Assembly (NCBI GenBank): GCA_050011555.1
Contig: JBEKIT010000005.1
Location: 36,379-100,378, forward strand
Direction: 5' to 3'
DNA length: 64,000 nt
Source: Candidatus Dormibacteria bacterium
Lineage (GTDB): Bacteria; Chloroflexota; Dormibacteria; Aeolococcales; Aeolococcaceae
Position numbers and translations under genes: made by a program. Under the pieces are notes generated by a model, which made no database searches, was not told the origin of the DNA, and worked only from the letters and a program-made list of their open reading frames with translations. Below are positions 18,491 through 30,354 of the stretch, one piece after another; positions within the stretch are counted from its first letter, which is position 1; each line of letters opens with the position of its first letter.

Positions 18491-19933
18491 GTGAGCACGG
18501 AGCGCGGGCCCGCTCGGCGGCTGGCCCTGGGCAGCCCGGCGGGTCGCTGGCTGCTGGCCGCGACCGTCCTCGGCTCCGGGATGGCCCTGCTCGACACCAC
18601 CACGGTGACGGTCGCCCTGCCGGCCATCGGGCGCGACCTGGGCGGCGGTCTGGCGACGCTGCAATGGGTGCTCGACGCCTACCTGCTCACCCTCGCCGGA
18701 ATGGTGCTGCTGGGCGCCGCGCTCGGCGAGGTGGTGGGCCATGACCGGGTCTTCCTGGCCGGTGCCGCGGGCTTCGGGGTGATCTCCATCCTCTGCGCCG
18801 CGTCGCCGAATGGGCTGACCCTGGTGCTGGGCCGGCTCGTGCAGGGCGCGGCCGCCGCGCTGCTGGTCCCCGGCGCGCTCGCCATCGTCTCCACCAGCTT
18901 CACCGCGGAGGATCGCGGCCGCGCCATCGGGGCCTGGTCGGTGATCTCCGGGACGGCCACGGTCATCGGCCCGCTGCTGGGTGGCCTGCTCGTCGACCAC
19001 GCGGGGTGGCGGTGGGTGTTCTGGATCAACGTCCCGCTCGCGGTGGCCGCGGTCGGCGCTGCCTGGGGTCACCTCCCCGCCCGGGAGGCCGGCTTCCGAG
19101 GTCGGGCCGATCGCCTCGACATCGGGGGCGCGCTGGCCGTGACCGTCGGGCTGGGGCTCGCCGTCACCGGCCTGATCGCGGGGCACACCCTGGGGGTCGC
19201 GATCAGCCTTGCGGCGGTGGTCGCCGGGCTCGCCGTGATGGTCGGTTTCGGGATCATGGAGAGGCGCCGGGACCACCCCCTGCTGCCACTCGGCCTCTTC
19301 CGCATCCGGGCGTTCACGGTCGCCAACCTCAGCACCCTCTTCGTCTACGCGGCCCTGAGCGCCGCGCTCCTCCTGGTGGTCATCGAGCTCCAGGCGGTGG
19401 CGGGCTACAGCGCGCTGGAGTCCGGGGCGGCCATCCTCCCGGTCACCCTGCTGCTCTTCGCCCTGGCCCCCCGGATGGGAGGGGTGGTCGGCCGCCTCGG
19501 TGCTCGGAGGCTGCTCACCCTCGGCCCGCTGGTCGCGGCGGTCGGGCTGCTCCTCTTCATCCGGGTGTCGGGCCCCGCCTCCTACCTGACCGTGGTGCTG
19601 CCCGCCGCGGTCCTCCTCGGGCTCGGCCTGGCGGCAACCGCGGCGCCGCTCACCACCACCCTGCTGGAAGCCGTGCCGGTGACCCGTGCCGCGATCGCCT
19701 CGGGGGTGAACAACGCGGTCACCCGGGTGGCCGGGCTGCTGGCGGTGGCGGCGGTGCCTCTGGCGGCGGGTCTCGCCGGGATCGATGACCTCACCGGAAG
19801 CGCGTACGACCAGGGCTACCACCGGGCCATGGTGGTCGCGGCCCTGCTCTGCGTCGCCGGGTCCGCCGTCTCCTTCGTCGGGCTGCGCCCTCACCGGCAC
19901 CGCGCGGCCGCGGACAACGCGGTCAGCGCGTGA
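18491..19933 (+). CDS. MFS transporter (DHA2-like, 14-TMS drug/H+ antiporter type)
   Basis: About 14 hydrophobic segments. MFS motifs GRxxDRxGRR-like (EDRGRAIGAW), LDTTTVTVALPAIGRDLGG. Confidence 0.88.
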   Translation: MSTERGPARRLALGSPAGRWLLAATVLGSGMALLDTTTVTVALPAIGRDLGGGLATLQWVLDAYLLTLAGMVLLGAALGEVVGHDRVFLAGAAGFGVISILCAASPNGLTLVLGRLVQGAAAALLVPGALAIVSTSFTAEDRGRAIGAWSVISGTATVIGPLLGGLLVDHAGWRWVFWINVPLAVAAVGAAWGHLPAREAGFRGRADRLDIGGALAVTVGLGLAVTGLIAGHTLGVAISLAAVVAGLAVMVGFGIMERRRDHPLLPLGLFRIRAFTVANLSTLFVYAALSAALLLVVIELQAVAGYSALESGAAILPVTLLLFALAPRMGGVVGRLGARRLLTLGPLVAAVGLLLFIRVSGPASYLTVVLPAAVLLGLGLAATAAPLTTTLLEAVPVTRAAIASGVNNAVTRVAGLLAVAAVPLAAGLAGIDDLTGSAYDQGYHRAMVVAALLCVAGSAVSFVGLRPHRHRAAADNAVSA

Positions 19934-22404
19934 GCACCTCCAGCGGGCTGCCGGCCGGGAACGCGGCGGCCCCGGACGCCGGGGCCGGTCCCGACGTCGG
20001 GGCGCTTGCGCAGGCCTTCAGCGCCCACGTCGGCCTGACCCTCGATCCCTTTCAGGTGGAGGCGATCGAGAAACTGGAACGCTCCCGGGGCGTGCTGGTC
20101 AGTGCGCCCACCTCGAGCGGCAAGACGCTCATCGCCGAGTACGCGATCTGGCGCTGCCTGGCGGCACCGCCGGGGCTGCGGCTGGACCCGGCGCGAGCCC
20201 ACCGGGTCATCTACACCACCCCGCTGAAGGCGCTCTCCAACCAGAAGTTCCGCGACCTCGGGGAGCGGTACGGCGGGGCCAACGTCGGTCTGGTCACCGG
20301 CGAGCACACCCTCAACGAGTCCGCGCCGGTGGTGGTGATGACCACCGAGATCCTGCGCAACATCCTCTACGACGAGCCCGCGCGCCTCGACCTCGTCGGC
20401 GACATCGTCCTCGACGAGGTCCACTACATCGACGACCACCCGCGCGGGACGGTGTGGGAGGAGGTGATCATCGAGGCGCCCCGCCACATCCGGATCACCG
20501 GGCTGTCGGCGACGATCAGCAACGTCGACGAGGTGGCCGCCTGGATGAGCGGGCTGCGCGGGGGCGTGGAGGTGGTGACCCAGACCGAGCGACCGGTGGC
20601 CCTCGAGCTCTGGCTCTGCCTCGACAACCAGCTCTGGCCGCTCTTCGACGAGCGCGGCCAGGTGGACCGTCGCACCCTGGAGAAGGCGCAGAACCTGAGC
20701 GCCGGCGATCTCCGGTTGCGCTACGCGCGGCGCGCCCCCGAGAACGACCTGCTCCAGGTCATCGAGCGCCTGCGCGGCAACGGCATGCTGCCGGCCATCT
20801 ACTTCATCTTCTCGCGACGCGGCTGCCGCGAGGCGATCTCGCGCTGCGCGGTGCACGGCCTCGATCTCACCACGCAGACCGAGAAGCTGGCTGTCGACAC
20901 CGAGCTCACCCACCGCCTGGAGGCGATCGCGGACGACGACGAACGCCGTGTCTTCCTCGATGCGCTCGACGGCAAGCTGCTCCGCCGCGGCATCGCCATG
21001 CACCACGCCGGCATGCTGCCGTACGCCAAGGAGACCGTCGAGGTGCTCTTCCAGCGGGGCCTGGTCAGGGTGGTGTTCGCCACCGAGACCCTCTCGCTCG
21101 GCCTCAACATGCCGGCCCGGGCCTGCGTGGTCTCCTCGTTCACCAAGTTCGACGGCACCGGATTCCATGCGCTCACCCCGGCAGAGCTGACCCAGCTCAT
21201 GGGGCGGGCGGGCAGGCGCGGCATCGACACCCTGGGACACGGGATCATCCTCAAGGAGTCGGACGTCGACGTGCGCGACATCTACGACGCCGCGATCGGC
21301 GGCGAGATGAGCGTCGAGTCGAAGTTCGCGCCCACCTACACCATGGTGCTCGCCCTGCTCAAGACCCGGAGCCTGGAGCGGGCCGAGGAGCTGCTGGACC
21401 GCTCCTTCGGGCAGTACCAGGCACTGCTGCGCAGCGAGCACTGGGTGCACCGCAGGGCAAACCTCGAGAAGCTGCGCGACGATCTGGCGCGGCGCGTCTT
21501 CCGCCATCCGCGGCTCGCCTGCACCGAGGTGACGCTCACCCGCCACCTGCGGCTGGCCGCCCAGGTCGAGGCCATGGACACCGAGGTGCGACGGGCCCAG
21601 CGCCAGCACTGGCGCGACAGCCGGGCGGGCCGCTACGGCGGCCGCGCCGCCGATCCCGGCGGGCGGTTCGAGACCATGCGGCGCTCCCTGAAGGCATCGC
21701 GCGCCCGGTTGGAGCAGAGCCCGTGCACCGGCTGTCCCCACCTCAGCGAGCACCGCGGCCACCGGCGCGAGACCGAGGAGGTCGCGGAGACGCTTCGCCA
21801 CGGCGAGGAGGAGCTGCGCTCGGCCCGAGGCCGCTACCGGCGCGAGTTCCGAGCCCTGCGCGGGGTGCTGCGCGAGGCCGGCTTCCTGGAGAACGACCGG
21901 CCCACCGAGCTGGGGCTGCTCGCCGAGGCACTCTTCGGAGAGAGCGCCCTGCTGGTGGCGGATGCGATCCAGGCCGGCTGGCTCGAGGAGCTGACCCCGG
22001 CCGACCTGGTGGGCGTGCTCACCATGCTGGTGGCCGAGGACCGCGGGCGTGATCGGCCCCCGCCGGCCCGCCGCCAGTGGCCCAGCCGGGGCGTGGAGCG
22101 CGGTCACCGCCTGCTGCGCGCCGACCTCCAGCGGCTCGCCGCCATCGAGGAGCATCACGGGGTCGCCACCCTCCGGCCGCTCTCCTTCGACTTCGTCGGA
22201 GCCGCCCACCAGTGGGCCTCCGGGGTGGCGCTCGCCGAGATCGACGTCCCACCGGGCGCCGACGTCGGCGACCTCGTGAAGGCGGTCAAGAACCTCTACT
22301 CCCTGCTCCGCCAGATGGAGCAGGCAGTCCGCGAGCATCGGCTGGCGCCCCTGGTGAGGCGGACCCGCGAGGCGATCGAGCGGGAGATGATCCGCCGGAT
22401 CTAG
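19930..22404 (+). CDS. helY: HelY/Ski2-like DExH-box RNA helicase
   Basis: FQVEAIEKLERSRGVLVSAPTSSGKTLIAEYAI (motif I), LDEVHYIDDHPRGTVWEEVII (DEVH), GLSATISN, IAMHHAGMLP...VVFATETLSLGLNMPAR. The C-terminus is Ski2-like. The GTG start overlaps the MFS stop (GTGA). Confidence 0.9.
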   Translation: MSTSSGLPAGNAAAPDAGAGPDVGALAQAFSAHVGLTLDPFQVEAIEKLERSRGVLVSAPTSSGKTLIAEYAIWRCLAAPPGLRLDPARAHRVIYTTPLKALSNQKFRDLGERYGGANVGLVTGEHTLNESAPVVVMTTEILRNILYDEPARLDLVGDIVLDEVHYIDDHPRGTVWEEVIIEAPRHIRITGLSATISNVDEVAAWMSGLRGGVEVVTQTERPVALELWLCLDNQLWPLFDERGQVDRRTLEKAQNLSAGDLRLRYARRAPENDLLQVIERLRGNGMLPAIYFIFSRRGCREAISRCAVHGLDLTTQTEKLAVDTELTHRLEAIADDDERRVFLDALDGKLLRRGIAMHHAGMLPYAKETVEVLFQRGLVRVVFATETLSLGLNMPARACVVSSFTKFDGTGFHALTPAELTQLMGRAGRRGIDTLGHGIILKESDVDVRDIYDAAIGGEMSVESKFAPTYTMVLALLKTRSLERAEELLDRSFGQYQALLRSEHWVHRRANLEKLRDDLARRVFRHPRLACTEVTLTRHLRLAAQVEAMDTEVRRAQRQHWRDSRAGRYGGRAADPGGRFETMRRSLKASRARLEQSPCTGCPHLSEHRGHRRETEEVAETLRHGEEELRSARGRYRREFRALRGVLREAGFLENDRPTELGLLAEALFGESALLVADAIQAGWLEELTPADLVGVLTMLVAEDRGRDRPPPARRQWPSRGVERGHRLLRADLQRLAAIEEHHGVATLRPLSFDFVGAAHQWASGVALAEIDVPPGADVGDLVKAVKNLYSLLRQMEQAVREHRLAPLVRRTREAIEREMIRRI

Positions 22405-22687: not shown

Positions 22688-24034
22688 ATGACCGACATGG
22701 GCCCCACCGCGCCGGAGGGAGAGCCCCCACCGGACGGAACCGCCCGAGCCGCCTCCGGCGGCTGGGACGATGAGGCACGCCACCCGGCACGGCGGTTGCG
22801 CCGCGCCCTGGCCGTCCGCGGCGGGGTCCCGCCCGAGCCGGTGGCCCCCGGGGCCGCGCCGGAGCGCGCGGACTTCGACCTCGACCCCGCGGCGGTGGCC
22901 GGCGCTCCGGGCGCGCCGCGGCACGGCACGAGAGCCCTCACCCGCCGGACCCTGGTGGTTGGCGTCGCCCTGGCGACGCTGGTGGCCGCGGCGGCCGGCG
23001 CTGTGGTGCTCACCTCGGCGCATCGCGCGCCGCTGGCGGTCGTGACCCCGACCCCCACCGCGATCGCCCTCCCCGCCGCGCCCCCGGTCCGCCCCTCGGC
23101 CCGGGTGGACGCGGCGATGGCCTACGACGACGCCGACGGCGACGTCATCCTCTACGGCGGGTTGGTGATCGGGGGCACGGGCCTGCGCGCGCTCGCCGAC
23201 ACCTGGAGCTGGAACGGGGTGGAGTGGAGTCGGCTCGACCCGGCGACGTCGCCGCCCGCGCTCAGCGATGCCCTGCTCGGCTATGACCCGGTCACCGAGG
23301 AGCTGGTGCTGACCGGAGGCGACCAGTCCAACCGGACCGACGGTCTGGTGGAGGCCGACGCCACCTGGACCTGGAGCGGATCGTCGTGGTCCGCTCAGCC
23401 GTCGGGCGGGCTGCCGGCACCGGACCTGCCCGGCGCGATGGCCACCGACCAGGCGACCGGGCAGCTCATCCTGGTCACCGGCAGCGCCGGCTGCCAGGGC
23501 ACCGAGACCTGGCGATGGGGGGCCGGATCCTGGGTCCTGCTCCACCCCGCGACATCCCCCCCGCCGGCGTCGGTCGACGGGCTCGCCTTCGATCCCGCAT
23601 CGGGGGGCCTGGACCTGCTCGAGGCGTCCGGCGGCTGCGCCGGGGACGCGGCCAGCACCTCCGCGACGCCGCCGGCGTGGTCGTGGAACGGCTCGACCTG
23701 GAGCCCGGTCCCGACCCCGGCCGCGTCCGCGCTGGCGGCGTCGTGGGAGCTGACCACGTCGGCCGAGGGAACGCTGCTGGTCTCCTCGGCGGGGACGTTC
23801 CTGCAGGGCGGCGGGGAGGACGGCGAGTGGACCGAGGTCTCGTCGAGCCCCGCGGCCGGCGACTCGTCGGTCGCCTACGACGCCGGAGACGGCCAGGTGG
23901 TCCTCTTCGGTGGCATCTGCGCGACCTGCGGCGCCGACGCGGTCCCCTACACCTGGACCTGGGACGGCGGCTGGACCCTCCGCGACTCCACGGCCGCCAC
24001 GGCGATTCCGCCCGCGACCCCCTACGATCGCTGA
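22688..24034 (+). CDS. Membrane-anchored Kelch-repeat (beta-propeller) protein
   Basis: One TM helix (LVVGVALATLVAAAAGAVVL) followed by about 6 repeats with W-x-W/Kelch signatures (TWSWNGVEWS, TWTWSGSSWS, TWRWGAGSWV, AWSWNGSTWS, YTWTWDGGWT) and VILYGG/VVLFGG strands. Confidence 0.7.
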   Translation: MTDMGPTAPEGEPPPDGTARAASGGWDDEARHPARRLRRALAVRGGVPPEPVAPGAAPERADFDLDPAAVAGAPGAPRHGTRALTRRTLVVGVALATLVAAAAGAVVLTSAHRAPLAVVTPTPTAIALPAAPPVRPSARVDAAMAYDDADGDVILYGGLVIGGTGLRALADTWSWNGVEWSRLDPATSPPALSDALLGYDPVTEELVLTGGDQSNRTDGLVEADATWTWSGSSWSAQPSGGLPAPDLPGAMATDQATGQLILVTGSAGCQGTETWRWGAGSWVLLHPATSPPPASVDGLAFDPASGGLDLLEASGGCAGDAASTSATPPAWSWNGSTWSPVPTPAASALAASWELTTSAEGTLLVSSAGTFLQGGGEDGEWTEVSSSPAAGDSSVAYDAGDGQVVLFGGICATCGADAVPYTWTWDGGWTLRDSTAATAIPPATPYDR

Positions 24035-24292
24035 GTGGCGCGGATCGAGGTGCTGGCCGAGGGCGGCGGGGCCTTCCAGGTGCGGGTGGAGGGGCGGAGC
24101 TTCGCGGTGACCGCAAGCGACGGGCTGGCCGGGGAGCTGGGTGCCCCCGACGCGGAGGCGCTGGTGCGCCAGTCGTTCGCATTCCTCCTGGAGAGGGAGC
24201 CGGCCGGATCGATCCTCCCCCGCTTCGACCTGACGGTGATCGGGCGTTACTTCCCGGAGTGGCGCGAGGAGATGCGCAGCCGCTGGCTCTGA
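24035..24292 (+). CDS. Small hypothetical protein, coupled to the upstream Kelch gene
   Basis: The GTG follows the upstream TGA by 1 nt. 85 aa (MARIEVLAEGGGAFQVRVEGRSFAVTASDGLAGELGAPDAEALVRQSFAFLLEREPAGSILPRFDLTVIGRYFPEW...). Strong GC3 bias and no recognisable family. Confidence 0.45.
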   Translation: MARIEVLAEGGGAFQVRVEGRSFAVTASDGLAGELGAPDAEALVRQSFAFLLEREPAGSILPRFDLTVIGRYFPEWREEMRSRWL

Positions 24293-24326
24293 CGTGTGGC
24301 GTCCGTCCTGGGCGGCCGCGCCATGC

Positions 24327-25019
24327 TCAGGGGACGGCGTCGACGGCCTGGCGGACCCAGCGCGCGATGACCCCGCGCCGCTCCGCATCGGTGCGCCGCA
24401 GCCACTCCCGCGCGTCATCGGGCAGCGTGAGGTGCCGTGCCCAGGCGCCCAGCAGCGCGCCGTCGACCTCGACGTGGAACTGGAACCCGTAGGCCCGGCC
24501 GAGTCGGAACGCCTGGTTGGGGTACGCCTCGCTCTGAGCCAGGTGGCAGGAGCCGCGGGGCAGGTCAAAGGTGTCGGCGTGCCAGTGGAGCACCGCCAGC
24601 GTCGGGCCGCAGCCCGCGAAGACGGGATCGTCGCGCCCGGGCGCGGTCAGGGTGACCGCCCCCAGGCCCAGCTCCGGGCCCCGCTCCCCGGGCCGCACCG
24701 GCGCACCGCAGGCGGCGGCGGCGAGCTGGGCGCCGAGGCACACCCCGAGCACGGGCAGCCCGCGGGTCACCGCCTCGTGGAGGAGCACCACCTCGTCGCG
24801 GAGCCGCCGATCCGGCGCGTGCACGCTCTGGGGACCGCCCATCACCACCAGGGCGGTCACGCCGTCGAGGGCGGGCAGCGGATCGGCGGCGCTGAGCCGG
24901 CGCACCTGCATGCCGAAGCCGGTGGCGATCTCGCCGATCAGGCCGGGGCCCTCGTCCTCGGCGTGCTCGATGACCACCAGCATGGGAGGTCTCGACCCCT
25001 CCACCGCCGGCTCGGTCAT
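24327..25019 (-). CDS. Class-I glutamine amidotransferase-like protein (GMP-synthase-N-terminal type)
   Basis: Catalytic Cys in LPVLGVCLGAQLAAAA and His/Glu in FQFHVE. 230 aa. The start overlaps the stop of the upstream gene (4-nt overlap). Confidence 0.85.
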   Translation of the reverse strand: MTEPAVEGSRPPMLVVIEHAEDEGPGLIGEIATGFGMQVRRLSAADPLPALDGVTALVVMGGPQSVHAPDRRLRDEVVLLHEAVTRGLPVLGVCLGAQLAAAACGAPVRPGERGPELGLGAVTLTAPGRDDPVFAGCGPTLAVLHWHADTFDLPRGSCHLAQSEAYPNQAFRLGRAYGFQFHVEVDGALLGAWARHLTLPDDAREWLRRTDAERRGVIARWVRQAVDAVP

Positions 25020-25555
25020 TCCTCGCGGACCATCGCCTCAGGGACCGAGACGACCCGGTACGGCAGGTCGGTGATGTCGTAGTAGCGGACCGCTTTGTGG
25101 AACCGCTTGGCGATCCCGATCTGGACCTTCACGCCGAGCGAGATGGTGCCGAAGACCCACATCTCGTCCGACTTGACGATCAGATTGTTGAAGGCCTCGC
25201 GCACCGTCTCCTTGGGCACGGTGTGGAGCAGGTAGTAGTCGAAGAGCATGAAGGGGACGATGGGGACGGCCCCCTCATCGAGGACGAACTTGCTGATGTG
25301 CTGGCGCCAGTAGAAGTTGCGATTGCTAATGGCGCAGTAGACGATCCGTCGCGGACGGCGCAGCACCCGCTCCGCCTGCTCGGCAGGGGACGCCTTGGGC
25401 CGCGGGGTGAAGATCCGCTCGAGGATGTCCTCGGCGTCCTTGACACCCCCGCTGACGGCGGGCGTCGGCGTGGTTTCTTTGTCGGGCACGGCGGCACCCT
25501 GTCTCTCACTGTGCGGGAGCACAAACAGCGTCCGATCATAGCATCGCTCGCTCAT
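25016..25555 (-). CDS. Nucleoside 2-deoxyribosyltransferase-like (DUF4406-like) fold protein with N-terminal extension
   Basis: RIVYCAISN..., ...DEGAVPIVPF..., ...LIVKSDEMWVFG... and ...SLGVKVQIGIAKRFHKAV resemble the NDT/Rcl/LOG-type flavodoxin-like fold. In NDT the corresponding motif is GTAFEMGYA, with a catalytic Glu; here that position is Gln. The region is visibly A/T-richer. 4-nt overlaps on both sides. Confidence 0.45.
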   Translation of the reverse strand: MSERCYDRTLFVLPHSERQGAAVPDKETTPTPAVSGGVKDAEDILERIFTPRPKASPAEQAERVLRRPRRIVYCAISNRNFYWRQHISKFVLDEGAVPIVPFMLFDYYLLHTVPKETVREAFNNLIVKSDEMWVFGTISLGVKVQIGIAKRFHKAVRYYDITDLPYRVVSVPEAMVREE

Positions 25556-26211
25556 CCGGATTCCGCCCAGGCGACCAGATCGGGAAGTCGGGCGAGGGCG
25601 CGCTCCAGGCGGGCGATGTGCGCCGACTCGTTGAGCCAGCGGCTCTGCCCGGACGGGTGGGGCAGCGGGAGCAGCAGGGGCGCGCCGTCACCCACCTCCG
25701 CCTCGGCTCCGGAGGCGTCGAAGAGGCTCCCCACCGCGGCCTCCAGACCCTTCCCGGGAAGGAAGCGGGTCAGCGCCAGGGTCCCGATCGGGAGCACCAA
25801 CCTCGGCTTCAGCAGCGCGAGGACCCCGTTCAACCAGCCGGCGCAGAGGGCGACCTCCCGCGCGCTGGGACGCCGGTCGCCACGGCCGTCGGGGGTGCGC
25901 CCGGGGAAGCAGGTGGTCATCGAGGTCATGTAGACGCGGCGCCGGACGTCGGCGTCGCCGGCGAAGCCACCCCGCTCGAACCAGCGCATCAGCTGCCGGC
26001 CGGCGCGGCCCGCGAAGGGCCGCTGCCCGTCGTTCTCGACCGGCCCCGGAGCCTGTCCCACCAGCAGGATCCGCTGTCCCGGATGGCCGCTGAAGACCGG
26101 GTTGGCAGCCGCCAGGAGGCCCGCGCCGACGCAGCGGGTGCAGGCGCGGTGCGCCGCCTGCAGAGCGTGCAGGGAGCCCCCCTCCAGAGGCGTCCGCTCA
26201 GCTCCGGGCAC
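25552..26211 (-). CDS. Uracil-DNA glycosylase superfamily protein (family 4/5-like, Fe-S type) with non-canonical motif A GQAPG
   Basis: Motif A is ILLVGQAPGPVENDGQRPFAGRAGRQL. The family-4 consensus is GEGPG; E to Q is the kind of change seen in UdgX and UdgB-type enzymes. Motif B is LPLPHPSGQSRWLN. Cys residues for a 4Fe-4S cluster: CTRC, TCFPGR, LCAGW. Confidence 0.75.
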   Translation of the reverse strand: MPGAERTPLEGGSLHALQAAHRACTRCVGAGLLAAANPVFSGHPGQRILLVGQAPGPVENDGQRPFAGRAGRQLMRWFERGGFAGDADVRRRVYMTSMTTCFPGRTPDGRGDRRPSAREVALCAGWLNGVLALLKPRLVLPIGTLALTRFLPGKGLEAAVGSLFDASGAEAEVGDGAPLLLPLPHPSGQSRWLNESAHIARLERALARLPDLVAWAESG

Positions 26212-26380
26212 GCGCGAGCTCCGGCAGCCGGACGCGGGCGGCCCCCGGCCGGCGCGAGCTCCGGCGACGGATCGGAAGGCGGTCGACCCGGCGCGCGGTC
26301 GGGGGTATCATCTCTATGCGGCCGCATCGCATTGTCAACGTGGAGGCCTGCGGACCGCATGGCGCGCGCAGTGGGACGTG

Positions 26381-26758
26381 ATGCCTGACGACGACTACCG
26401 TCCGACCCACGGGCTCCCCCCGGATTCGCGGTCCACGAACGTGCCTCCGGATTGGTGGTCGCAGCTCGACCGCAACGACCTGCCGCCGGATGGTCGGGAC
26501 CCGGGCGACGGGCGCGGTCACCGGCGCGGGCGTGACGACGCCGCACACGCCCATCGTGGCCGCCGCCCGGCTCGACCGGGCCTGAGCTGGCAGCGGTGGC
26601 TGATCAACCTCGCGCTCATCGCTATCGCGGCTCTCCTGCTGATCGCCGGACTCGACGCGACCCCCAGCGGGGCCGCGCCGATCCTGATCGTTTTGGGCAT
26701 TCTGATCCTGCTCGCGGCGGTGGCCGTCCAGACGGTGCGCGCCCGGCATCGGGGGTAG
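26381..26758 (+). CDS. Small hypothetical membrane protein
   Basis: ATG at 26381, about 125 aa, two C-terminal TM helices (WLINLALIAIAALLLIAGL; ILIVLGILILLAAVAV). Confidence 0.4.
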   Translation: MPDDDYRPTHGLPPDSRSTNVPPDWWSQLDRNDLPPDGRDPGDGRGHRRGRDDAAHAHRGRRPARPGLSWQRWLINLALIAIAALLLIAGLDATPSGAAPILIVLGILILLAAVAVQTVRARHRG

Positions 26759-26817
26759 CGGCGAGGGTGCGAGGCGGCCATGGGGACGGGGCCGCCGGGC
26801 GCAGCTAGCATCTCTCC

Positions 26818-27693
26818 ATGGACGTGGAGCGGGAGCGGCGGCGCCACCGCAGGCACCTGGACCCGGGACCCGGCGTGCGGCTTCCCCGGCTCGCCGCCGA
26901 CGTCGACGCCGCCGCGACCCAGCGCCGATTCCGAGAGGCCGCCGAGGACGTGGCCGCCCTGGCCTCGGCGGCTGACGCCGCCCTCCTCGAGCAGCTCGCC
27001 ACCGCACCGGTGCGGGCCATGGGCAGGGTGGTGTACTCCAGCAACGCGGTCTTCCTGCTCGAGCTGGACGCCCCCGACCCGACGGTGGCGGGACAGCCGC
27101 TGCGGGCGATCTACAAACCGGCCCGGGGGGAGCGCCCGCTCCACGACTTCGCCCGCCACACCCTGCATCTCCGCGAGCGCGCCGCCTACCTGCTGAGCGC
27201 GGCGGCCGGGATGGCGGTGGTGCCACCCACGGCGCTCCGGGACGGGCCCCACGGGCCCGGGAGCGTCCAGCTCTACGTCCACGGCGGGGACGAGGAGCTG
27301 CCCGCGAGCGCCACCGACGCCCTGGAGGCCCAGCTGCACCGGATCGCGGTCTTCGACATCCTGGCGAACAACGCCGACCGCAAGCGCGCCCACCTCCTGC
27401 TCGACGGCGCGGGGCACCTCTGGGGGATCGACAACGCCCTCACCTTCCTCCCCTACCCCCGGCAGCGAACCGTGCTCCTCCACCTGGGGGGCGACGACCT
27501 CGAGCCCGAGGACGCGGAGCTGGTGCGCGAGCTGCGTGACGGAGCCGTCCGCGACGCGCTGCGGGCCGCCCTCCGCCGGTTGCTGACAGCCGCCGAGGTC
27601 GACGCCTTCGAGGCCAGGGTGGAGGAGCTGGCCGAGCACCCGTGGTACCCCCGGCTGGACGAGTGGGACGGCCGCCCGTTCGAGTGGTGGTAG
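26818..27693 (+). CDS. SCO1664-family protein (PI3/PI4-kinase-like/HipA-like fold)
   Basis: Characteristic motifs of the actinobacterial SCO1664 family: AIYKPARGERPLHDF, HTLHLRERAAYLLS, VFDILANNADRKRAHLL, HLWGIDNALTF. Confidence 0.7.
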   Translation: MDVERERRRHRRHLDPGPGVRLPRLAADVDAAATQRRFREAAEDVAALASAADAALLEQLATAPVRAMGRVVYSSNAVFLLELDAPDPTVAGQPLRAIYKPARGERPLHDFARHTLHLRERAAYLLSAAAGMAVVPPTALRDGPHGPGSVQLYVHGGDEELPASATDALEAQLHRIAVFDILANNADRKRAHLLLDGAGHLWGIDNALTFLPYPRQRTVLLHLGGDDLEPEDAELVRELRDGAVRDALRAALRRLLTAAEVDAFEARVEELAEHPWYPRLDEWDGRPFEWW

Positions 27694-27714: not shown

Positions 27715-28605
27715 TCACGAGCCCTGACCTTCGCCCTCCGGCGCCATGGCCCGGGCCCATCCCGCGACCTCGAGTGGGCGTCGCGGCATCGCCTGCTCCG
27801 AGTCGACGAATGGCCGCACCTCGATGCAGCCGAACCGAGCCACCGGATGGCGCGACGCGACCTCGATCGCCTGGTCCAGGTGCGGGCACTCGATGACGTC
27901 GTAACCGGCGATCTGCTCCTTGGTCTCGGCGAAGGGGCCGTCGGTCACCAGCAGCTCCCCCTTGCGGGCACGGACCGTCGTGGCCGAGCTCACCGGCCTG
28001 AGACGACCACCGTGGAGGTTGACGCCACGGCCGATGGTGTCCTCGAGCCATGCTGTCATCCGTCGATCGGACTCGACGACCTCCTCGGGCGACAACTCCA
28101 CACCCTCGGCCACGCAGATCATGAGCATGTACTTGTTCCCGGTCTTCCCCGCCGGCTCGGCCGTCGTCACATCGGACGGGGGCTCGCCGCGCTGGAGACG
28201 GTCGTCGCGCCAGCCGATGGCGCGGGCCCATCCGGCCACCTCGAGGGACCTGCGCGGCAGCGCCTGGTCTCGGTCCACGAAGGGCCGCACCTCGATGCAC
28301 CCGTAGCGCAGGGGGAGGCGGGAGACCAGCTCGAGGGCCTCGTCCAGGTCGGCGCACTCGATGACGTCGTAGCCGGCGATCTGTTCCTTGGTCTCGGCGA
28401 AGGGGCCGTCGGTCACCAGCAGCTCACCCCCGCGGACGCGAACGGTCGAGGCGGTTTCGGCCGGCTGGAGCTGTCCCCCATGGAGGCTGACACCGCGGGG
28501 GATGGTGTCCTCGAGCCACGCCATCATTGCCCGGTTCAACTCCGCCGTTGCCTCGGCGCTGATGTCGACGTCCTTGTCGACGCAGTGCAAGAGCATGTAC
28601 TTCAT
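27715..28605 (-). CDS. Tandem YciI-like/DGPF-domain protein (two full repeats in one polypeptide)
   Basis: Two about 120-aa repeats, each beginning KYML(L/M)... and containing GELLVTDGPFAETKEQIAGYDVIEC and RFGCIEVRPF. They are joined by a short linker. Confidence 0.8.
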   Translation of the reverse strand: MKYMLLHCVDKDVDISAEATAELNRAMMAWLEDTIPRGVSLHGGQLQPAETASTVRVRGGELLVTDGPFAETKEQIAGYDVIECADLDEALELVSRLPLRYGCIEVRPFVDRDQALPRRSLEVAGWARAIGWRDDRLQRGEPPSDVTTAEPAGKTGNKYMLMICVAEGVELSPEEVVESDRRMTAWLEDTIGRGVNLHGGRLRPVSSATTVRARKGELLVTDGPFAETKEQIAGYDVIECPHLDQAIEVASRHPVARFGCIEVRPFVDSEQAMPRRPLEVAGWARAMAPEGEGQGS

Positions 28606-28642: not shown

Positions 28643-28900
28643 TCACAGCGGCAGTGGCCAGAACGGCCGCACCGCGATGGTTCGCAAACCGGCGAAGGGC
28701 CCGTCGGTCACCATCAGCTCCCCACAGCCGACGCGCAGGGTCCGAGCCTCCTCAGGGGGCTCGAGCCGATTCCCGTCAACGTGCACCCCCGGGGAGCTCG
28801 TCTCCCTGACCCACGACCTCGTCGATTCCATCGCCGCTGCCTCCTCGCCGGCGGTGAGGTCGACGGTGGTCTCGGCGCACATCAGCAGCCGGTGCTTCAT
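28643..28900 (-). CDS. Third, truncated/degenerate YciI-like (DGPF) copy
   Basis: 85 aa. MKHRLLMCAE...GELMVTDGPFAGLRTIAV... keeps the DGPF core but lacks the C-terminal half. It sits between the ECF sigma gene and the tandem DGPF gene in the same orientation. Its start overlaps the sigma stop. Confidence 0.45.
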   Translation of the reverse strand: MKHRLLMCAETTVDLTAGEEAAAMESTRSWVRETSSPGVHVDGNRLEPPEEARTLRVGCGELMVTDGPFAGLRTIAVRPFWPLPL

Positions 28901-30180
28901 GGAACCCTCCTCTCTGCGGTGACGGAGTCATCCAGCTCGTGGAGCCGGCGCATCAGGTAACGGCGCTCCACCTCGCTGGGACCGAGCTCCAGGGCGCGGC
29001 GGTAGCTGGCCGCGGCTTCGGAGCGGCGGCCCATGCGGCGGAGCAGGTCGGCCCGGGTGGCGGGCAGCAGGTGGTAGCCGCCGAGCGCCCCCGACGTCTC
29101 CAGCGCCTCCACTCTGGCCAGGCCGACCTCGATCCCCTCAGCCATGGCAACGGCGACGGCGCGGTTCAGCTCCACCACCGGTGAGGGCATCACCTCGGCC
29201 AGCCGGCCATAGAGCCCGGCGATCGCCGCCCAGTCCGTCTCCGCGGCGTGCTGGGCGGCGGCGTGGCAGGCGGCGATCCCCGCCTGCAGCTGGTACGGCC
29301 CGGTGAGCAAGGTGGTGGGCGTCCCGCTGAGGATGCGCTGCGCCTCCGAGATCTGCGCGCGGTCCCAGAGAGCACGGTCCTGCTCCTCGAGGGTGACCAG
29401 GTCGCCGTGTGCGTCGACCCGAGCAAGGCGGCGGGAGTCCTGGAACAGCATCAGGGCCAGCAGCGCCTGCACCTCGGGCTCATCAGGCATGAGCTGGGCG
29501 ACGATCCGGGCGAGCCGGAGGGCCTCGGTGGTGAGCCCCAGGCGGACCAGGTCACTGCCGGCGCTTGCCGAGTAGCCCTCGTTGAAGAGGAGGTAGAGGA
29601 CGGCGAGCACACCGCCGAGGCGTTCCGGGAGCAGGTGGGGTGGCGGCACCCGGAAGGGGATGCCGGCGTCCTGGATCTTGTGCTTGGCGCGGACCAGACG
29701 CTTCGCCATCGTGGCTTCCGGCGCGAGGAAAGCCCGCCCGATCTGGGCGGTGGTGAGCCCGGCGAGCGATCGCAAGGTGAGAGCGACGCGCGCCTCGATG
29801 CCGAGCGCCGGGTGACAGCAGGTGAAGATGAGGCGCAGCCGCTCGTCGGGGATGGCTGCGCCCTCGCGGTCCTCGTCCCCGTCTGCGCTTACAGGGCTCC
29901 GGAGCGCTGCCTGCTCGAGCTTGACGGCCTCGACGGCGCGACGGCGCAGTCGGTCGACGGCCTTGTTGCGGGCCACCGTGGTCAGCCACGCTCCGGGGCG
30001 GGATGGCACCCCGTCGCCGGACCAGCGCTGCACCGCTTGGGTGAACGCATCTTGGGCGCACTCCTCAGCGAGATCCCAATCACCAGTGGCGGCGATGAGG
30101 GTGGCCACAACCCTTCCCCATTCCTGATGGAAGGCATCGGTGACGGCGGTTTCGACGCTGGAGCCGGCGGTTTCCGCCAT
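28897..30180 (-). CDS. ECF sigma factor with long C-terminal TPR-like extension (ECF42-like)
   Basis: From ATG at 30178-30180: region 2 (FHQEWGRVVATLIAATGDWDLAEECAQDAF) and region 4 (LAGLTTAQIGRAFLAPEATMAKRLVRAKHKI), followed by about 230 aa of helical repeats. Adjacency to DGPF genes is the known ECF42 signature. Confidence 0.8.
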   Translation of the reverse strand: MAETAGSSVETAVTDAFHQEWGRVVATLIAATGDWDLAEECAQDAFTQAVQRWSGDGVPSRPGAWLTTVARNKAVDRLRRRAVEAVKLEQAALRSPVSADGDEDREGAAIPDERLRLIFTCCHPALGIEARVALTLRSLAGLTTAQIGRAFLAPEATMAKRLVRAKHKIQDAGIPFRVPPPHLLPERLGGVLAVLYLLFNEGYSASAGSDLVRLGLTTEALRLARIVAQLMPDEPEVQALLALMLFQDSRRLARVDAHGDLVTLEEQDRALWDRAQISEAQRILSGTPTTLLTGPYQLQAGIAACHAAAQHAAETDWAAIAGLYGRLAEVMPSPVVELNRAVAVAMAEGIEVGLARVEALETSGALGGYHLLPATRADLLRRMGRRSEAAASYRRALELGPSEVERRYLMRRLHELDDSVTAERRVP

Positions 30181-30354
30181 CAACTCCCGCTTGTGGCGCA
30201 CATCCGCAAGCCGATGCTGGCCATGACATGGGCTCCTGTCTGGGGTGGGCCACCCCCGGGGGAGAGGCTCTCCTGGTGCCGCACCCACCGGGACCGTTCC
30301 CATTCTCCGCTCCACTGCTCCGGCGAGGCCGTGATCGGGGCTGCTCGCCAGCCG

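Follow-up and report, generated by a model that had tools for sequence, protein, structure and literature searches.

Uracil-DNA glycosylases (UDGs) form a superfamily that is classified by active-site motifs, and a new combination of motifs may mean a new specificity or a new chemistry. In the family 4 enzyme TthUDGa, the main chain of the motif-A glutamate E41 makes the contact to uracil O2, N80 reads N3 and O4 of the base, N89 positions the water, and H155 stabilises the leaving group; the substitution E41Q lowers k2/Km 888-fold (PMC5387724). UdgX retains the motif-A glutamate, and its motif set consists of GEQPG and a KRRIH R-loop that contains His109, a residue stated to be the functional equivalent of TthUDG N89 (PMC10359453). 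The title of PDB entry 6l6s describes a UdgX H109E mutant crosslinked to DNA. Here we compare these and related systems with a locus of three minus-strand genes at positions 24327 to 26211 of the window, a stretch of 64,000 nucleotides from contig JBEKIT010000005.1 of a Candidatus Dormibacteria bacterium. The genes encode, in order, a UDG-superfamily protein, a protein of the DUF7768 family, and a class-I glutamine amidotransferase (GATase).

The middle protein resembles the nucleoside 2-deoxyribosyltransferases (NDTs) and DNPH1, in which a glutamate serves as the nucleophile and forms a covalent ribosyl-enzyme intermediate. In mammals, DNPH1 clears non-canonical nucleotides. It cleaves 5-hydroxymethyl-deoxyuridine monophosphate (hmdUMP), and the logic of DNPH1 and SMUG1 is the model for a two-tier sanitation of lesions. 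We tentatively read the locus, at a probability of roughly 0.4, as a vertically inherited chromosomal module of the Dormibacterota for base or nucleotide damage, in which a remodelled Fe-S glycosylase would be joined by a DNPH1/NDT-like partner that lacks the nucleophile and probably binds a ligand, with the GATase added in one clade. A DNA-modification system is not supported. The Dormibacterota live in soil and permafrost and have no cultured members, and insight into their repair biology would be new.

The UDG and its predicted active site

The UDG gene (25552 to 26211, minus strand) encodes 219 residues that match PF03167 with an E-value of 4.7e-25 and 88.8 bits against a gathering score of 24.3. 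By sequence, the nearest solved proteins belong to family 4 (1ui0, 4zbx, and 1vk2) and to UdgX, while family 5 is much farther away; the profile E-value is 7.6e-21 for family 4 and 5.5e-10 for the family 5 enzyme TthUDGb (2d3y/2dp6). The AlphaFold (AF2) model has a predicted local distance difference test score (pLDDT) of 85.8. Its Foldseek matches to family 4, UdgX, family 5, TDG, and MUG all have a probability of 1.00, and the template modelling scores (TM-scores) are about 0.76 to 0.77 for family 4 and UdgX and 0.61 for family 5. The protein does not reach the NCBIfam cut-offs for family 4 (TIGR00758; 54.3 bits, trusted cut-off 125.3) or UdgX (TIGR03914; 55.9 bits, cut-off 189.95), and it is closer to family 4 than to the UDGb enzymes of family 5 in both sequence and fold. 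Taken by sequence and modelled structure, it is a family-4-like member of an unclassified subfamily with a predicted [4Fe-4S]-type cluster, outside the definitions of family 4, UdgX, and family 5.

Residues at and around the predicted active site are strongly conserved among 77 orthologues. None of the four cysteines C24, C27, C101, and C123 varies, and all four align with the Fe-S ligand cysteines of 1ui0, 4zbx, and 1vk2, which, together with the PF03167 match, bears out the assignment to the Fe-S UDGs made in an earlier note that a model had written from the sequence alone. Motif A reads G-Q-A-P-G in 76 of the 77 (residues 52 to 56; 26044 to 26058, minus strand). Also near-invariant are E59, F66, T96 followed by Ser or Ala, the loop G111-D112-R113-x-P115, and motif B, H185-P-S-G-(Q/A)-S-R-W-L-N. 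The same note had recognised the exchange of the motif-A glutamate for glutamine, which is real, but it was mistaken in offering UdgX as an example of such a loss, since UdgX reads GEQPG (PMC10359453).

Two residues stand out as candidates for catalysis. The invariant His185, in the HPSGQSRWLN form of motif B found in the window (25657 to 25659, minus strand), corresponds to the leaving-group-stabilising histidine of family 4, H155 (PMC5387724). Asp112 (25876 to 25878, minus strand) lies in the invariant G-D-R-x-P loop, at the position of TthUDGa N89 and UdgX H109, although the alignment of this loop is ambiguous. A profile alignment places Asp112 on N89, with the loop six residues longer in the window protein. 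Pairwise alignment places it on residue 109 of a UdgX H109S chain, while the profile alignment to UdgX is off by four residues. Equivalence of Asp112 with N89 and H109 is plausible from these alignments rather than proven.

We propose that the protein still works as a monofunctional glycosylase and that it prefers a lesion other than uracil, or one in addition to it. His185 and Asp112 would form the catalytic pair, with His185 stabilising the leaving base. The pocket appears to be remodelled at three points: Asp112 would take the place of the water-positioning asparagine, Gln-Ala that of Glu-Gly, and Ser or Ala that of the asparagine that reads uracil. To our knowledge, no described UDG family combines the Gln-Ala doublet, an aspartate at the C1'-facing motif-3 position, and the absence of the uracil-reading asparagine.

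The DUF7768 protein and its family

The second gene is an open reading frame (ORF) of 179 codons (25016 to 25555, minus strand) whose probable product has 157 residues. It matches PF24963 (DUF7768) at 31.2 bits against a gathering cut-off of 26, and PF24963 is annotated on all of its homologues. Orthologues are 63 to 92% identical across loci in which the UDG is 47 to 92% identical, and this conservation points to strong purifying selection. In the structural model, the core (pLDDT 86 to 94) adopts an NDT/TIR flavodoxin-like fold preceded by two conserved N-terminal helices. The NDT of C. thermalis heads the Foldseek ranking, ahead of ThsB2, DNPH1, BcmB, and MilB, and its E88Q mutant (8pqq) is the best hit of all; according to the entry title, 8pqq is a Glu-to-Gln variant of the NDT fold crystallised with a nucleoside analogue bound. 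Support from sequence is slight: phrog_355, annotated as nucleoside 2-deoxyribosyltransferase, matches the window protein at an E-value of 1.5e-3 and its relatives at 1e-5 to 1e-14. An NDT-like fold had been suggested for this protein, and these hits agree with it. No match to PF05014 was found at E ≤ 1, and profile searches of the PDB returned no hit for the alignment of the window's subfamily and only chance matches for a broad DUF7768 alignment.

The defining feature of this subfamily is Gln145 (25121 to 25123, minus strand), which lies within the motif SLGVKVQIG. Among 400 DUF7768 relatives gathered by exhaustive profile search, most carry D-E-L-W-V-F-G-x-I-S-D-G-V-x-x-E-I, with Glu in this column, whereas in the Dormibacterota the motif ends in S-L-G-V-K-V-Q-I and the glutamine is invariant. 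We refer to the two forms as Gln-type and Glu-type. The Gln-type proteins have, in addition, no Asp in the motif that reads S-D-G-V elsewhere. The rest of the pocket is common to both forms (A-x-S...F-Y-x-R, P-x-x-P-F, F-D-Y, N-N, D-E-x-W-V-F-G, and S-x-G-V), and the invariant acidic residues of the Gln-type are D93/E94, D106, and E116. In hhalign, the Gln145 column falls on E104 of DNPH1 (SLGVGYELG) and E98 of NDT (GLGMELG), in weak alignments (E about 0.15); the residue equivalence with NDT is drawn from these alignments together with the Foldseek ranking. The glutamine had been noticed from the sequence as standing where NDT has its catalytic glutamate, and the column and the glutamate of most relatives agree with this.

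Because Gln145 occupies the position of the covalent nucleophile, the natural Gln form is most likely a binder and not a catalyst. It would bind a ligand of the (deoxy)ribose-5-phosphate type without cleaving it. This ligand could be a damaged deoxynucleoside monophosphate (dNMP) or a flipped or abasic sugar, and the protein would then serve as an accessory or regulatory partner. The isoelectric point of the core is mildly higher in the Gln-type (9.1 to 9.7) than in the Glu-type (median 8.0), a difference that is uninformative on DNA binding. In effect, the Gln-type protein is a natural pseudoenzyme-like copy of the change by which NDT-type enzymes are inactivated, and it nonetheless ranks with the better conserved small proteins in the phylum. 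This suggests a binding role that merits definition.

The start of the gene bears on how tightly it is coupled to the UDG. The earlier note had described 4-nt overlaps between all three genes, and ATGA is indeed present at both junctions (25552 to 25555 and 25016 to 25019). However, the overlap between UDG and DUF7768 requires a start at ATG 25555, which is probably not used. In many homologues the protein begins at the counterpart of Val23, which is GTG 25489, and the close relative L008, whose locus includes the GATase, has an in-frame stop that excludes an N-terminal extension. Across twelve close relatives, variable columns are distributed over the three codon positions as 10/3/8 before the GTG and as 5/6/20 immediately after it. 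The true start is probably GTG 25489, and the overlap would then be an artefact of ORF calling, with a conserved 62-nt spacer in its place. This stretch, from the UDG stop to the probable GTG (25490 to 25551, minus strand), has no Rfam match and its codon-position pattern is not of the coding type. It may be a conserved leader or other regulatory element, or else a clade-specific N-terminal extension. The 66 nt from ATG 25555 to GTG 25489 are conserved in the twelve relatives; with 21 of 66 columns variable, against 22 of 42 in the adjoining UDG C-terminus, the stretch is as conserved in nucleotides as coding DNA. At the protein level, the N-terminal extension of roughly 60 residues described earlier stands only in part. 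About 30 residues (roughly 40 to 68, forming the two helices) are conserved, while residues 1 to 38 are variable with a pLDDT below 50, conservation beginning near residue 40.

The wider DUF7768 family provides insight into what the protein may recognise. Glu-type domains are fused to NUDIX (P0123 and P0199), to MazG (P0143), and to type-I phosphoribosyltransferases (P0194, P0264, and P0269), and DUF7768 is also the C-terminal domain of a large family of FAD-dependent proteins of about 570 residues (P0174-P0252; about 555 to 610 residues). Tandem duplications of DUF7768 also occur (the proteins listed with fusions include P0124-P0128). In 79 Glu-type loci, first or second neighbours include Ham1 (8), NUDIX (5), DUF1653 (4), and canonical NDT (3), as well as HAD phosphatases, an NTPase_I-T ITPase, and an IMPase-family protein. 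The members of one metagenomic lineage (L141-L170) show a same-strand cluster in which a Glu-type DUF7768 gene is followed by DUF1653 or an uncharacterised protein and then by Ham1 or canonical NDT (for example, 4353 to 6045 in L143, 2969 to 6714 in L148, and 3 to 2355 in L149); in many of these loci, an NAD-dependent DNA ligase gene lies directly upstream. DUF7768 thus keeps company, both as neighbour and as fusion partner, with enzymes that clear non-canonical nucleotides. From these fusions and neighbours, it is likely that the family acts on non-canonical (deoxy)nucleoside monophosphates. The damaged-nucleotide sanitation module that had been offered as a fallback explanation of the locus fits this company of NUDIX, MazG, Ham1, ITPase, HAD, and phosphoribosyltransferase proteins better than base exchange does. 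These fusions and neighbours are a first functional lead for DUF7768 and make the family a candidate for a bacterial equivalent of nucleotide sanitation by DNPH1. A literature search returned nothing relevant on gene neighbourhoods of NDT and UDG or on DNA repair in Dormibacterota.

Gene order, the amidotransferase, and the chromosomal setting

In a scan with one genome per species, 305 genomes carry the Gln-type gene, and the counts given here are for the best 80 of these 305, all Dormibacterota, some of them mislabelled. Neighbours were counted by targeted tblastn, all-against-all clustering of ORFs having been dropped as it was swamped by high-GC shadow ORFs. The UDG is within the locus in 76 of 80 cases, and in 72 of the 74 loci with enough upstream flank (about 97%). 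It lies directly upstream of DUF7768 on the same strand in every UDG-bearing locus except L083 (about 75 of 80), with 57 to 268 nt between the UDG stop and the DUF7768 core. Other neighbours are less constant: a helicase is found in 61 of 80 loci, a 291-aa ORF in 50, and all others in 20 or fewer. The pair is also present in seven of seven further loci (L001-L004 and L088-L090), in which the GATase is absent and LemA, YkuD, or a helicase lies downstream. Nothing else in the region is as constant as the UDG-DUF7768 pair. No fused ORF was found among 79 loci, and the two frames coincide in 29 of these 79, about the one-third expected by chance; stop-codon read-through and a true fusion were rejected on these grounds.

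Only 17 of the 80 loci have the GATase downstream of DUF7768, and all of these are close relatives of the window. The GATase is a clade-specific addition, and the trio is not a conserved system; it fails the test of synteny in other genomes that the earlier note itself had set. The gene (24327 to 25019, minus strand) encodes a stand-alone class-I enzyme of 230 residues (PF00117; E 6.8e-17, 62.2 bits against 22.8) with PDB relatives 9xfs, 1o1y, and 3m3p. Its Cys94/His182/Glu184 triad is intact when aligned with the solved GATases 9xfs and 1o1y, as had been read from the sequence. The best NCBIfam model is NF005458 (PRK07053). No canonical synthase gene that could accept ammonia is present in the window locus.

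A second case of coupling comes from metagenomic contigs of one low-GC lineage (L100, L108, and L129), in which a GATase gene immediately precedes a Glu-type DUF7768 gene. The pairs occupy 4204 to 5351 in L100, 4214 to 5396 in L108, and 3 to 655 in L129. The two genes overlap at ATGA in L100 and L129 and stand 1 nt apart in L108, with flanks that vary from locus to locus. The GATases of L100 and L108 pass the cut-off of NF005458/PRK07053, the model that is also the best for the window GATase. Because the gene order is the reverse of that in the window, this coupling appears to be an independent event. This is modest evidence for a link of the GATase with DUF7768 and not with the UDG, and the link may not be accidental; in the window, too, the GATase would probably relate to DUF7768. 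Of the three-gene link first proposed, it is this part that finds some support, a PRK07053-type GATase being translationally coupled to DUF7768 in an unrelated lineage, while the trio of the window is confined to one clade.

The locus sits in ordinary chromosomal DNA. GC content is 0.67 to 0.77 throughout the window and 0.72 at 24 to 26 kb, the same as the surroundings. Such high-GC DNA is rich in long chance ORFs, but the three ORFs have hundreds to thousands of homologues apiece and are therefore true genes, at the coordinates first given for them. Upstream of the UDG and divergent from it, at 26102 to 26758 on the plus strand, is a gene whose small product has a PPDWW..L.R.DLPDD motif and ends in a membrane segment. 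This gene is also kept in the two loci that lack the UDG (4232 to 4771 in L046 and 4318 to 4827 in L056, both on the minus strand). Beyond it lie the 291-aa ORF with a C-terminal RPFEWW motif (26818 to 27693, plus strand; within 5 kb in the 50 loci counted above), a protein with two YCII domains (27715 to 28605, minus strand), and, adjoining the latter, an ECF-type sigma factor with DUF6596 and tetratricopeptide (TPR) repeats (28897 to 30315, minus strand). On the other side, convergent with the GATase gene, are abutting plus-strand genes for an 85-aa protein (24035 to 24292) and a 448-aa protein (22688 to 24034), present in 15 and 13 of the 80 related loci, respectively. No Pfam match was found for the membrane protein, the 291-aa ORF, the 85-aa protein, or the 448-aa protein. 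Farther out is a Ski2/HelY-like DEAD-box helicase with a DSHCT domain (19930 to 22404, plus strand), which is the helicase counted within 5 kb of DUF7768 in the related loci. A second Dormibacterota clade has a Gln-type gene for only 150 residues (6001 to 6453 in L085, L086, and L087), situated 21 nt from a divergent short-chain dehydrogenase (SDR) gene. The DSHCT helicase is found near this gene as well and marks a stable chromosomal neighbourhood.

Scans of the minus strand with an E. coli-type consensus found no promoter or terminator, and no Rfam family matches within 24000 to 27000. None of the three proteins has a PADLOC hit, and a defence system was rejected on this basis. A Glu-type DUF7768 query had zero matches in 72,556 plasmids and 50,697 phages, and a mobile element was likewise rejected. 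The setting is that of a housekeeping chromosomal locus without mobile, defence, or modification context.

Competing readings and comparison with known systems

Several observations weigh against a repair module of UDG and DUF7768. The region is fairly syntenic across the phylum, so that the adjacency may in part reflect inheritance and not selection. In L046 and L056, the divergent membrane-protein gene and DUF7768 are kept and the UDG is absent, and in the 150-aa clade no UDG adjoins the Gln-type gene in three of three loci. None of the 79 metagenomic Glu-type loci has a UDG-superfamily neighbour, as judged with a profile sensitive to families 4, 5, and UdgX. One metagenomic protein of 229 residues, P0132, does hold a UDG C-terminus and a Gln-type DUF7768 in a single ORF, but it carries frameshift-like errors and may be an assembly error. 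As for the proteins themselves, the UDG could be weak or inactive, given that E41Q alone cripples TthUDGa; the pairwise and profile alignments of the Asp112 loop disagree; and Gln145 could support a chemistry that we have not foreseen. A literature search found no papers on DUF7768.

The main rival reading, possible if somewhat unlikely, is that the genes are neighbours by descent only, in which case the UDG would be a stand-alone repair enzyme, DUF7768 would have a separate role such as sensing or sequestering nucleotides, and the GATase would be unrelated to either. The broad synteny marked by the helicase and the 291-aa ORF would be expected under this explanation, and so would the clean loss of the UDG from two loci, its replacement by a divergent SDR gene in the 150-aa clade, its absence from the Glu-type loci, and an overlap with DUF7768 that is probably unreal. 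On the other hand, descent alone sits poorly with an adjacency of about 97%, higher than for any other neighbour and kept although the flanks vary on both sides, with the shared strand, order, and short spacer of the pair, or with a GATase-DUF7768 coupling that recurs independently in the opposite order. A damage module could also take the form of a two-tier sanitation system, in which DUF7768 would be an active hydrolase that uses another acid on damaged dNMPs or ribonucleoside monophosphates (NMPs) while the UDG removes the same lesion from DNA. D93/E94, D106, and E116 could stand in as the acid, the remaining pocket is conserved between the Gln- and Glu-types, and the family context is one of nucleotide house-cleaning. 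We nevertheless consider an active hydrolase doubtful: the glutamate is the covalent nucleophile in both NDT and DNPH1, the Glu-to-Gln variant of 8pqq was crystallised with its nucleoside analogue, and the glutamine is invariant in the whole subfamily, which has lost the S-D-G-V aspartate as well.

The more exciting possibility raised for this locus, a three-protein system of DNA base exchange or hypermodification, is not supported. The glycosylase would open a site, the NDT fold would transfer a sugar or base, and the GATase would give ammonia. Three co-oriented and tightly packed genes are present in the window's clade, in 17 related species, coupling of GATase and DUF7768 is found twice, and Asp112 lies at the site at which UdgX H109E forms its covalent DNA adduct. 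However, synteny fails, as the trio is limited to one sub-clade, and the NDT-like protein is without the nucleophile that glycosyl transfer needs. Genes for a transglycosylase, an ATPase, precursor synthesis, restriction, or mobile elements are absent from the surroundings; defence models give zero hits, the DUF7768 family is absent from the phage and plasmid collections, and the gene holds a stable chromosomal position across a phylum. Base exchange is very improbable on this evidence. An equally long shot is that Asp112 forms a covalent deoxyribosyl-enzyme intermediate on DNA, to which DUF7768 would dock to protect, pass on, or re-base the sugar-phosphate, with ammonia from the GATase in the window's clade. 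If true, this would be a new kind of protein-assisted processing of apurinic/apyrimidinic (AP) sites or of DNA base exchange that is native to a whole phylum.

The damage module that we favour can be set against known systems as follows. Dpd and phage-type modification systems have a TGT-like transglycosylase or its equivalent, an ATPase, precursor-synthesis genes, and usually a mobile or defence island, all of which the window locus lacks. The GATase resembles the orphan enzymes of the PRK07053/TM1158 type (1o1y, 3m3p, and 9xfs) in its single domain, its Cys-His-Glu triad, and its best model, although at 139 bits it scores below the equivalog cut-off of 250. We know of no acceptor synthase partner for enzymes of this type.

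For the UDG, the closest match in both sequence and structure (TM about 0.77) is family 4 UDGa, represented by the T. thermophilus (1ui0) and S. tokodaii (4zbx) enzymes. Shared features are the four cysteines at Fe-S positions, the stacking phenylalanine (F66), the thymine-excluding glutamate (E59), and the motif-B histidine. The window protein departs from family 4 in having GQAPG for GE(A/G)PG, with Gln at the position of E41, in having Ser or Ala for N80 and Asp for N89 in the longer motif-3 loop, and in its form of motif B, HPSG(Q/A)SRWLN. UdgX of M. smegmatis, a covalent uracil-DNA binding protein, shares the Fe-S family-4-like fold at a similar TM-score and an enlarged, arginine-rich loop at the R-loop position (GRGDRRP in the window protein, KRRIH in UdgX). 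It differs in pairing Glu52 with His109 where the window protein has Gln53 and Asp112, and covalent trapping is a property for which the window protein offers no evidence.

DUF7768 is best compared with NDT, DNPH1 (Rcl), and the MilB-BcmB N-glycosidases. The Gln-type protein is set apart from these by the absence of a PF05014 match, by Gln in place of the catalytic Glu, and by the extra conserved two-helix segment at its N-terminus. It shares with them the flavodoxin-like fold and the motif S-x-G-V-x-x-[E]-(I/L)-G-x-A after strand 3, and with DNPH1 in particular the DUF7768 family shares a context of nucleotide sanitation.

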